Shown: positions 23,454 to 26,488 of the stretch, one piece after another
Numbering within the stretch: the first letter of the stretch is position 1
Layout: each line of letters starts with the position of its first letter
Assembly (NCBI GenBank): GCA_944320495.1
Contig: CALUHR010000003.1
Location: 64,001-128,000, forward strand
Reading direction: 5' to 3'
Length of the DNA: 64,000 nt
Source of the DNA: Candidatus Methanomethylophilaceae archaeon
GTDB taxonomy: Archaea; Thermoplasmatota; Thermoplasmata; Methanomassiliicoccales; Methanomethylophilaceae
Position numbers and translations under genes: made by a program
Notes under the pieces: model-generated
What the model was told of the DNA's origin: nothing
Database searches by the model: none
What the model saw: only the letters and a program-made list of their open reading frames with translations

Positions 23454-24380
23454 TCGTGCCCTCCCGATCCTCTCCCTCGCCCTGTCCAGGAGCTGGCAGG
23501 ACTTGCAGCTTCCTCCGAGCGTGGGCTCCCCGCAGCGGGGGCACGGGTGCATCTCCGTCTCCGGCAGACCTGCCCTCAGCATCGGCTTCAGGGAATCGTA
23601 CGACGAGAGTATGCCGAACCTCGCCCCGGGCGAGCGGTCCTCGAGCTGGTCCACGATGTCGCGGTACTGGTTCCTCAGGGCGGCCTCCCAGTAGGGGCAC
23701 ACCCCGTCCCAGAACTCCATCCCCGAGACGATTGCGTATAGCAGCGTCTCCTTCTCCGGGATCGTCCTCAGCGGGAGGAACCTCGGGACGAGACCGGGCT
23801 TCACGACGTCGTGCGGTGCCATGCGCGCCAGGCGCTCCACGTCGCCCCTCACGAAGTTCATCATGATCGACTGCGACATGTCGTCCAGGTTGTGGCCCGT
23901 CGCCAGATACCTGGCGCCGATCCTCCTCGCCTCGTCGTTCATGAGCATCCTGCGGAACACGCCGCAGTAGGTGCAGGGGCTGCTGTCCCCGCTCACCGGC
24001 GCGATCTCGTCCATCGTCACTCCCATCTCCGAGAAGGAGCGCAGATGGAACCCCACACCGTTGGATTCGCAGAACCTCCTGACGATGTCCACGCTGGGCG
24101 GGCGGTAGCCCGCGATGCCCTCGTCGATCGTTATCGCATGGAGCTCGACGCCGTTCCTCTCGTTGAACACCGACGCCAGCATCCTGAGGGCGACCATGCT
24201 GTCCTTCCCCCCGGACACGGCGACGGCTATCCTGTCCCCGCGGGAGACGTCGATCTGCTTGCGGATCTCCCTCTTGACCCTGCGGTCCACGTACCTCATG
24301 AAGTGCTCGGCGCAGAGGTGCGTGCCGTTGTACCTCACGAACGTGACGGCGTCGCGGCCGCAGACGTCGCAGGATGTCAT
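23454..24380 (-). CDS. tRNA 2-thiolation protein, TtcA/Ctu1/NcsA (TIGR00269-like); proposed end at CGA 23456-23454 (TGA at 23394)
   Basis: CDVC...HLCAEH Zn finger, PP-loop VAVSGGKDS, CTYC, ATGHNLDD, C-terminal CPRCGE...CKSC. ATG 24380 has a GGAGGGTGA Shine-Dalgarno. Confidence 0.88.
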
Positions 24381-25524
24381 CCTCACCCTCCAGGATCGCC
24401 TCCATCTTATCGGCGAGCACCTTGGACGGTATGTCCGGCAGGACGATGACCGCGGTCCTGCCCGTCTCGTTGTCCACCACCGTGAGCCTGATCGCCCCGA
24501 TCTTGTCCAGGTCCTGGAGGTACTTCCAGAACTGAGTGTGCTTCCGGGCGGGGACCTCGTACTCCTCGCACACCACCGCATAGGTCCTCTCGGCGGCGGC
24601 CGCCGGGATCGAGGGGTTCTTCTTCATGGCGCGGGCGACCGCGAGCAGCACCAGCTTCCTGTTGATGTCCAGGGAACGGAGCTTGGAGTCGGACACCGCG
24701 CTGTATATCATGGCCTTGGCGGCCCTCACATGGTCCACGTCGACCTCGCCGGAATCGTCCTCCTCGGCGATGTTCGCCGCCCTGTCCAGGAGCTCGATGG
24801 CCATCCTGGCGTCGCCGTACTCGGCTGCCTCCTCGGCTATGACGTCGAGGGCATCGTCCGAGCACCTGCCCGGGAACAGCGCCTCCTCGGCGCGGGAGCC
24901 GACGATCTCCCTGAGCTCGGCCATGCTGTAACGGTCGAACCTGACGACGTTGGTCCTCCTGAACGTGGAGAGCGAGGCCTCGTCGAGCACCATGTCCAGG
25001 GGCTCCTGGGAGATCATGATGACCGACACGGGCGCGGAGCCCTCCCTCATGCGCGTCAGCTGGTAGACCAGGTCGGTGGATCCCTTCCTCAGGAGCACGT
25101 CCACCTCGTCCAGGATCACGGTCATCGCCCTGCGGTTCGATGCCAGATGCTGGGAGAGCACCCTCGCCATGTCGTCCTGGGAGAACCCCCTGCCCGGGAA
25201 CCCGGGGTCGTAGTGCCTGATGAGCTGCAGGAGCACCCCGGTCTCGGAGGTGTTCCGGCAGTTCACGTAGATGACGTCCAGGGCCTTGCCGGCGGATCCC
25301 ATGTAGTCGGCCATGTCCCGGCAGAACCTGCGGGCGGTGACCGTCTTCCCGGTGCCCACCCCTCCGGTCAGGAACGCGGTGCACTGGCGGCCGTCGAGGG
25401 CGAGCGGACGGAACAGCGTCTCCAGACGGGAGAGCTGCCCGTCCCTGTTGACCAGGCTCTTCGGGATGTACGCGAAGTCGAGGACCGACCCGTCGCGTAT
25501 GATCGTGGACCTCCGCTCGAACAT
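24367..25524 (-). CDS. cdc6: Orc1/Cdc6 family replication initiation protein; proposed end at CGA 24369-24367 (385 aa)
   Basis: Walker A GGVGTGKT, YVNCR, Walker B ILDEVD, GDARMAI and a C-terminal winged helix. The standard-code ORF runs 717 aa across the thiolase gene. Confidence 0.88.
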
Positions 25525-25525
25525 G

Positions 25526-26488
25526 TCGGTTCCTGCTGCAGCGGATGAATCCGGAGCACGGGACGACCTCTATGCCCTCCCGCTCCCAGATGTCGCAGAT
25601 CAGGTTCACTCCCAGGGAATCCGACGGCATGTGGCCGGACACGACGAGGTTCACGTGCGCCTCCCTGGCCGCATCGTAGTGGGACTCGGGGAAGTGCATC
25701 GCGATGACCGTCCCGACGCCCGCGCGGGCCAGGGCCTCGTACATCTCCTTCGGTCCGGAGGTGCCGCCGGTCATCTTGCACATGATCCTCCCGCAGCGGG
25801 AGTCCTTCGATCCGACCATCACGGTGGGGACACAGTTCCTCCTGGCCGCGGCCACGTACTCCGGCTCACCCATGAGGACGTCGACGATGTCCCCGAGGGT
25901 GCGGGGGGCCCTCTCGTCCATGAGCCTCGTGAGGTAGTCCTGGACCATGTTGTCCGCGGCCGAGTGGACGTTGAACATCGGGATGCCCAGCATCCTCGCG
26001 GCATCGGCGGCCTGGTCGTAGTTGGAGCCCATGACGCCTCTGAGCACCTCGGAGGTCCTCGGCCCGACGATCCCCTCGGCGACGTTGATAGGCACGCCCT
26101 CGGCATGGTACATGTCCGCCTGGATCGGAATCACGTTGGGGTACAGGTTCCGGGATTTCCCCGTGGGATGGTGCGCCACCACAGCGTCGATGCGCTCCCC
26201 CTTGGAGCGGAGGCGGTCGGCCAGCAGGACCTCGGCGGGTCCGATGTCTATGCCCCACATCATCCTGGAGGCCTCGGTCTCGCGCGCCAGCTCCTCCAGG
26301 GCGGAGAACCTGCAGTCGGAGTAGGGGTTCCAGAGACGCTCGGTGTCGAAGCACTCGCGCCTCCATCCCTCCGACCTCTCGTATTCGGAGGCCGCCGCGT
26401 CCAGGACGCGCCTGACCTCGTCCTCCGGACGGGGGTCCTTCCCCATGCCCGCCCTGATGGCGGCCTCGTAGGCCTCGTAGACCTTCAT
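25526..26488 (-). CDS. NIF3/NGG1p-interacting-factor family protein; proposed end at CGA 25528-25526 (320 aa)
   Basis: LWNPYSDCR, GIDIG, VAHHP, HSAADN, GHMPSDSLG, ending CSGFIRCSRN. The standard-code ORF runs 693 aa across cdc6. Confidence 0.8.

Follow-up and report, generated by a model that had tools for sequence, protein, structure and literature searches.

The 64,000-nucleotide stretch of DNA analysed here (hereafter the window; positions 64,001 to 128,000 of contig CALUHR010000003.1, Candidatus Methanomethylophilaceae archaeon, assembly GCA_944320495.1) carries on its minus strand a tight trio of genes encoding a NIF3-like protein, the replication initiator Cdc6/Orc1 and an NcsA/TtuA-like thiolase, in which the expected protein ends come without a standard stop codon. 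The locus raises the question of what ends these three genes. Judging from comparisons of DNA sequence, we consider it likely that they end at CGA because this codon acts as a fourth, probably leaky, stop codon in a genus of the Methanomethylophilaceae.

Gene ends of the operon

Under the standard code (table 11) the minus-strand open reading frames (ORFs) of the locus occupy 24407..26488 (693 aa), 23371..25524 (717 aa) and 23394..24581. When CGA is counted as a stop, the frames are 25526..26488 (320 aa), 24367..25524 (385 aa) and 23454..24386 (the thiolase, about 309 codons from its ATG), and these limits place each end at the first in-frame CGA of its gene. The two sets of frames thus bear out what the first-pass annotation had proposed from the letters alone, namely that all three genes stop at their first CGA and that the standard code would give products of 693 and 717 residues. 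The junctions it had described were also seen in the sequence: the NIF3-like gene ends CSRN CGA C ATG, one base ahead of the cdc6 start at 25524; cdc6 ends GEDDIL CGA (24369-24367), with an overlap of 14 nucleotides with the thiolase gene, whose ATG lies at 24383; and the latter ends RERIGRA CGA at 23456-23454. Within the three genes no in-frame CGA occurs in about 1,013 codons, and in the frames behind the gene ends CGA accounts for 2-3% of codons, a contrast that exceeds chance. The G+C content at third codon positions (GC3) of the true frames is 0.93-0.94.

The proteins delimited in this way appeared complete when compared with known families. The Cdc6/Orc1 product matched TIGR02928 (3.9e-66), the profile ending at residue 351 of 385, while the thiolase matched the NcsA profile NF047749 (1.4e-65), as well as PF22082 (TtuA_LIM_N) and PF01171, with positions 2-318 of the 322 in the NcsA/TtuA profile covered and the match ending at residue 300 of 308. 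The NIF3-like protein had no significant Pfam family (NIF3, E = 0.2), but it aligned over residues 69-313 with residues 34-277 of the 278-residue PDB chain 3rxy_A, annotated as 'NIF3 protein' (3.8e-33), and scored 0.97 against Atlas NIF3 clusters. The gene names assigned initially therefore stand, two of them by profiles and that of NIF3, weak in Pfam, by its clear match to the structure. An exact look-up of the 385- and 717-residue forms of Cdc6 was uninformative, neither being recorded.

Behind the three CGAs the distance to the next stop-like codon is 3, 5 and 20 codons, respectively, and the base following each CGA is C. One readthrough event at these ends would thus lengthen the protein by 3, 5 or 20 residues and not by 370. 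Frameshifting onto a concealed stop was set aside, since neither the −1 nor the +1 frame yields a stop at any of the three sites.

Orthologous gene ends in the genus

The same operon was taken from 32 other species-level genomes of the genus and the gene ends were aligned, the counts for the thiolase end being adjusted because the query contained a CGA-coded residue. At the end of the NIF3-like gene the orthologues carry TGA (17), CGA (2) or, one codon earlier, TAA (1), the codon being otherwise the same one. The cdc6 end is occupied by CGA in 21 genomes and by TGA in 11, with no TAA and an offset of −2 to +6; past these orthologous CGAs the next standard stop usually lies 42-316 codons on, and 3 codons on in one genome (G058). 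For the thiolase the counts are 21 TGA, 2 TAA and 4 CGA, mostly within 3 codons, with one TGA 7 codons on. The check suggested by the first-pass annotation, that is, which codon of the relatives aligns with the CGAs, is accordingly answered by TGA, TAA or CGA itself, and the long C-terminal extensions that it had named as the outcome that would refute the idea were found in none of the orthologues of the three genes (up to 32 other species). For cdc6, replacing the T of TGA by C leaves the overlapping thiolase protein unchanged, as TGT and TGC both encode Cys.

A similar picture was obtained beyond the operon. When 36 CGA-ended genes were compared with six genomes that lack CGA ends, the standard stop of the orthologue lay at a median offset of 0, within 5 codons in 89% of cases and in none at 30 codons or more; TGA-ended genes gave in the same comparison a median offset of 0 with 92% within 5 codons. 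It had also been argued that three independent losses of a stop in one operon are very unlikely. The reading of CGA as a stop for which that argument was made is supported, though the events themselves appear as T-to-C changes of TGA into CGA where CGA already terminates, and not as losses.

The best named match of the genus is Ca. Methanoprimaticola, the Cdc6 of Ca. Methanoprimaticola hominis Mx06 being 73% identical. The organism is present in chicken-gut and bird metagenome runs of eight studies, and one DNA contig (X1) spans the CGA end of the NIF3-like gene with 0 differences.

CGA use across the genome and the family

The assembly to which the window belongs (designated G000) has 1.77 Mb, 62% G+C and about 1,700 genes. 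Its true-frame GC3 of about 0.93 offers a way to locate where coding stops that is free of any assumption on the code, and we took advantage of it by requiring 50 coding-like codons upstream of a given codon and then following the signal of the same frame behind it, without assuming that CGA is a stop. The frame was still coding-like behind only 4 of 404 CGA codons (1.0%), in line with 16 of 846 for TGA (1.9%) and 0 of 76 for TAA (0%), whereas behind sense codons it remained so in 20-62% of cases. Among 1,236 strong ORF ends, 899 were TGA, 287 CGA (about 23%), 33 TAA and 17 TAG.

In-frame CGA is found in members of the genus at 0-8 occurrences per 14-20 thousand aligned codons, and CGA gene ends are used by most sampled members whose sampled DNA has at least about 56% G+C. 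Four other genera of the family use CGA very rarely, as an arginine codon, and do not end genes with it. The pattern fits a history in which CGA first became rare, then harmful in frame, and is now recruited at gene ends under strong T-to-C pressure.

Several candidate results did not survive scrutiny. TAG appeared as a frequent sense codon (3,321 sites) under a loose frame filter, an artefact of antisense frames that was gone with a stricter one; a self-trained codon model suffered from the same antisense-frame contamination and was not used; and an artificial swap of TAG and CGA in the data was rejected because more than 20 other species assemblies carry CGA at the same sites.

The release factor aRF1

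The gene for the release factor aRF1, outside the window (G000:C2:86932-86934, L063:2491-2493, minus strand), itself contains an in-frame CGA, which encodes Arg78, the arginine of a conserved RLK segment that follows NIKS. Of 50 species of the genus, 49 have a single CGA in their aRF1 gene; it is codon 78 in 47 of them, codon 11 in one and codon 25 in another, and none of the roughly 1,100 other arginine codons of these genes is CGA. In the sister genera a single CGA stands at codon 25 in 11 of 13 cases, codon 78 being free to vary there, and the aRF1 genes of other families have 0-5 scattered CGAs. The codons at +1 to +5 past the CGA show, across the 50 species, almost only synonymous or conservative changes, and the gene is therefore translated through its CGA. 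The codon preceding it almost always ends in T, and the following base is always C.

aRF1 is probably the reader of CGA, as far as sequence comparison can indicate. The protein retains both NIKS and YxCxxxF; the x of the latter, which by our own motif alignment we take to be L123 of eRF1, is here arginine (YRCDSTF). Arginine at this position is common to all families of the order and cannot alone explain the behaviour of the genus. As a separate observation, the segment at codon 28 reads GRSTEL in this genome and in the near-identical G018, and GRGTEL in all other aRF1 examined; from our own motif alignment this segment presumably corresponds to the GTS loop of eRF1.

One CGA kept by selection in the gene of the factor is the pattern of a feedback loop like that of bacterial release factor 2 (RF2), and we put such a loop forward as a candidate. 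In prfB, which encodes RF2, the factor's own codon likewise occurs in frame near the beginning of the coding sequence, is kept throughout the clade and has to be passed for the full-length product to be made. The two cases differ in that passage in prfB occurs by a +1 frameshift and was experimentally shown, whereas here it would occur by readthrough as arginine at a conserved arginine, and one CGA-using genome (G070) lacks the codon.

A retained tRNA-Arg(UCG) and the leakiness of CGA

An intact-looking tRNA-Arg(UCG) is encoded in this genome (55.7 bits against the Rfam tRNA model; G000:C13:413317-413390, L214:1491-1564), and the tRNA was found in at least 30 members of the genus and also, in a divergent form, in G008, G015, G007 and G059 (in G008 at G008:C1:762581-762654, L275:82-158). 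Its loss in G008, G015 and G007, as suggested by BLAST and two patterns, proved wrong when an Rfam scan of the complete G008 genome and ARAGORN revealed the divergent copy. Throughout the genus the anticodon stem has only four Watson-Crick pairs, the mismatch lying at 31-39 in most members and at 27-43 in the G008 group, while in a sister genus the stem is regular. Most members have the anticodon loop CUUCGGA, this genome has UUUCGGC, and the low-GC G008 group has CCUCGAC, in which position 33 is C; to our knowledge, elongator tRNAs without U33 are very rare.

The surroundings of the gene ends also distinguish CGA from TGA. A standard stop is the very next codon after 7.0% of CGA ends and 3.0% of TGA ends (p = 0.005), and any of the four stop-like codons follows within 5 codons in 48% and 26%, respectively. 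The base after the end is T at 58% of the 287 CGA ends against 28% of TGA ends. The next codon is TCG, which forms the palindrome CGATCG, in 16.7% of CGA ends and 4.8% of TGA ends, and TGG follows 9.8% of CGA ends.

A second conserved in-frame CGA joins gmhA to gmhB, which has no start codon of its own (G000:C13:194143-194145, L215:1144-1146, minus strand). The junction codon is CGA in 23 genomes of the genus, TAG in 4 and AGA in 2, and in five genomes the genes are separate, with TAA and a start codon for gmhB. The arrangement is a candidate for programmed readthrough, which would yield both GmhA and a GmhA-GmhB fusion. In another member (G011, L242), CGA encodes the arginine in the DRDDT motif of gmhB, an indication that a sense CGA persists within a conserved motif in at least one species of the genus. 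The scans for further internal CGAs were not exhaustive and missed the aRF1 site itself. The retention of tRNA-Arg(UCG) and the need for translation to pass two conserved in-frame CGAs make it probable that CGA stops translation in a leaky or ambiguous way.

Weighing the explanations

CGA shows several properties of a stop codon in this genus: it is absent from conserved coding sequence, it is placed where orthologues stop, and the coding signal ends there. A number of observations weigh against our interpretation and have to be set beside these. A stop codon should have no competing cognate tRNA, and tRNA-Arg(UCG) is kept in every genome that could properly be checked, including the complete G008, although one would expect it to disappear in a clean reassignment; the presence of this tRNA is the reason why we file CGA as a leaky or ambiguous stop and not as a clean reassignment. 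The low-GC genomes G007, G008 and G015 show no CGA in 106 gene ends, nor in 41 further ends of G008; they nonetheless avoid in-frame CGA and retain the CGA of aRF1. In G070 CGA ends are used, yet codon 78 of aRF1 is CGC. Among the recognition motifs of aRF1, no change was found by which the genus could be told from Methanomethylophilus-like genera, which continue to use CGA, rarely, for arginine. The species of the genus are related, and the counts across them do not amount to independent events. Finally, the support lies at the level of DNA sequence, the metatranscriptome material consisting of sparse contigs.

The unchanged motifs of aRF1 and the odd structure of the tRNA would both fit a case in which aRF1 does not see CGA at all and CGA is instead a hungry codon whose poor decoding by tRNA-Arg(UCG) stalls the ribosome, followed by splitting by aPelota/ABCE1 and hydrolysis of the peptidyl-tRNA; CGA would then end genes while not being a true stop codon. 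The four-pair anticodon stem found across the genus and the replacement of the near-universal U33 by C33 in the G008 group are in keeping with such a rescue. As the routine end of about a quarter of the genes, however, it would be slow and costly, and it leaves unexplained the conserved CGA of aRF1, which has moved between codons 11, 25 and 78 but is always single, a behaviour that fits a loop sensing aRF1 activity and not rescue. Besides, yeast eRF1 does act on CGA (PMC7379694), and we regard rescue as an improbable account of these gene ends.

The exchange of CGA and TGA at the same sites among orthologues could also be read as the trace of C-to-U editing of the mRNA, which would turn CGA into UGA and leave the code standard; plant organelles make stops in this way, as database annotations also record. 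An editing enzyme is nevertheless blind to the reading frame, and off-frame CGA is very common (97,784 trinucleotides on both strands), so that some 400 sites would each require a specific guide, while the in-frame CGAs of aRF1 and gmhA-gmhB would need to escape. We know of no mRNA-editing system in archaea, and consider this explanation very improbable. One contig from an RNA run (X16) spans the CGA at 29030-29032 with three differences at unlocated positions; the RNA contigs are sparse, and none was shown over the three CGAs of the operon. Least credible of all is that the code is standard, CGA simply means arginine, as the existence of an intact-looking tRNA-Arg(UCG) would allow, and the genes have been extended, fused or mis-assembled or are in decay. 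Table 11 would add stretches of 373 and 332 residues that run out of frame over the next gene, with no match in a family search and no GC3 signal; the same problem arises at about 287 genes, more than 20 independently assembled species carry CGA at the cdc6 end, and the orthologues stop at the position of the CGA.

Our preferred interpretation remains that CGA is a leaky stop. In mechanistic terms, aRF1 would read CGA as it reads UGA, in competition with the retained, unusual tRNA-Arg(UCG). With a GC3 of about 0.93, T-to-C pressure could convert TGA ends to CGA without penalty, and at the end of cdc6 the same change may even improve the overlapping thiolase codon (TGT to TGC). Where a CGA at a gene end is read as arginine, nearby back-up stops, such as those found behind the three genes of the operon, would limit the damage. 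The in-frame CGA at Arg78 probably sets the output of aRF1 through the efficiency of termination at CGA, much as the in-frame UGA does in bacterial RF2. A more far-reaching version, in which CGA has a dual meaning, being by default a stop through aRF1 and arginine at a few programmed sites through the odd tRNA-Arg(UCG), with aRF1 gauging itself at Arg78, seems to us on these sequence comparisons evenly balanced between true and false.

Relation to known systems

Sense codons that became stops are known from organelles, where AGA/AGG (vertebrate mitochondria, table 2), TCA (Scenedesmus mitochondria, table 22) and TTA (Thraustochytrium mitochondria, table 23) likewise stand at the ends of genes and are absent inside them. 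Those codes serve tiny genomes in which genes number from a few to a few dozen, and they have release factors of their own; here, in contrast, the organism is a free-living archaeon with about 1,700 genes, CGA stands at about 23% of the ends, the tRNA is kept and there is no frame-shift stop at the sites. Human mitochondrial AGA/AGG is thought to act by a −1 shift onto UAG.

Release at CGA has a precedent in yeast, where eRF1/eRF3, eRF1 being the eukaryotic homologue of aRF1, releases peptides at this codon in competition with tRNA-Arg, and termination is detectable when one CGA stands at the end of a gene (Wada and Ito 2018, PMC7379694); the UGA-biased eRF1 variants L123F/R/Y enhance this release (PMC7379694). 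In yeast, however, this misdecoding has no part in the code and amounts to a minor side reaction at a slowly decoded codon. Within the same archaeal family, Genetic Code 34, in which all TAG encode pyrrolysine, was described for Methanomethylophilus and others in a paper that does not mention CGA (Kivenson et al., bioRxiv 10.1101/2024.09.30.615893). The specificity of the release factor has already shifted there, and TAG and CGA interchange at the gmhA-gmhB junction, although Code 34 is a change from stop to sense and the one proposed here goes from sense to stop. In the ciliates Condylostoma and Parduczia (PMC4967479) one codon likewise terminates or encodes depending on its location; in that case standard stops gained a sense meaning, whereas here an archaeal sense codon would have gained a stop meaning, with one or two sense sites left.

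The possibility that CGA might be a stop was raised for two hydrothermal-vent archaea in which CGG encodes tryptophan (Melnykov, bioRxiv 10.64898/2026.04.02.715157). CGA is absent from conserved domains in those archaea too, but they belong to another lineage, have about 50% G+C and a tRNA-UCG that was not found, and the proposal is tied to the CGG change and leaves gene ends untested; the present analysis covered gene ends, orthologues and the gene for aRF1. Our literature search found no paper describing CGA as a stop in this family or in any free-living organism.

Features of the window

The features of the operon, together with four further CGA ends in the window, are collected in Table 1. 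The hairpin that the first-pass annotation had placed behind the thiolase gene is present as an inverted repeat, but its stability is not above that of shuffled sequence, and an Rfam scan of the window gave no match.

Table 1. Positions of the operon genes, their CGA ends and other features in the window
Feature	Position	Strand	Evidence or remark
NIF3-like gene, 320 sense codons	25529..26488	-	ORF with CGA as stop; PDB 3rxy_A; Atlas; GC3 0.93
CGA ending NIF3-like gene, one base ahead of cdc6 ATG	25526..25528	-	sequence and orthologues
Second in-frame CGA, 3 codons past NIF3-like CGA; possible back-up stop; within cdc6 codons 2-3	25517..25519	-	
cdc6/orc1 replication initiator, 385 sense codons	24370..25524	-	TIGR02928; Cdc6_lid, Cdc6_C and AAA domains
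CGA ending cdc6, within thiolase codons 5-6 (TGC GAC)	24367..24369	-	sequence and orthologues
Second in-frame CGA, 5 codons past cdc6 CGA	24352..24354	-	
ncsA/ttuA-like tRNA 2-thiolation gene, 309 sense codons	23457..24383	-	NF047749, PF22082, PF01171
CGA ending thiolase gene	23454..23456	-	sequence and orthologues
First standard stop (TGA), 20 codons past thiolase CGA	23394..23396	-	
Inverted repeat gacgg-tccg-ccgtc	23431..23444	-	in centroid fold; z = +0.54 vs shuffles; no T-run after
CGA ending ORF 29030..29734	29030..29032	-	
CGA ending ORF 34254..34841	34254..34256	-	
CGA ending ORF 35845..36324; two further CGAs within 5 codons	36322..36324	+	
CGA ending ORF 39184..39903	39901..39903	+	

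Two observations elsewhere in the window may be added. An in-frame TAG at 668-670 of the plus strand lies in a repeat unit (FVAW-TAG-DADG) of a very large repeat protein, at a position where sister repeats have Q or L, and the frame runs for more than 1,600 codons on; it fits either a pyrrolysine reading, as in Code 34, or a change from CAG to TAG. On the minus strand, an ORF of 2,295 codons (11217-18104) is free of both CGA and TAG and is probably the gene of a giant surface protein.

Significance

The change of a sense codon into a stop has so far been accepted for organelles only, and a case in a free-living archaeon that retains the cognate tRNA and has the codon in its own release-factor gene would show how such a change can pass through an ambiguous stage, while the discrimination of U from C at the first codon position by a release factor would become testable. 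For annotation, standard pipelines mis-call about a quarter of the genes here, and the 693- and 717-residue products are fusions with out-of-frame sequence, one of them on a replication initiator; such mis-calls affect catalogues of the gut archaeome of chicken, ruminants and humans. The family is also the source of PylRS/tRNA-Pyl pairs for code engineering, which makes a second natural recoding in it of practical interest. If the dual meaning of CGA were true, it would represent the first capture of a sense codon as a stop in a cellular genome and the first archaeal release-factor feedback loop, and these animal- and human-gut methanogens would offer a living example of the ambiguous intermediate stage of a change in the genetic code.

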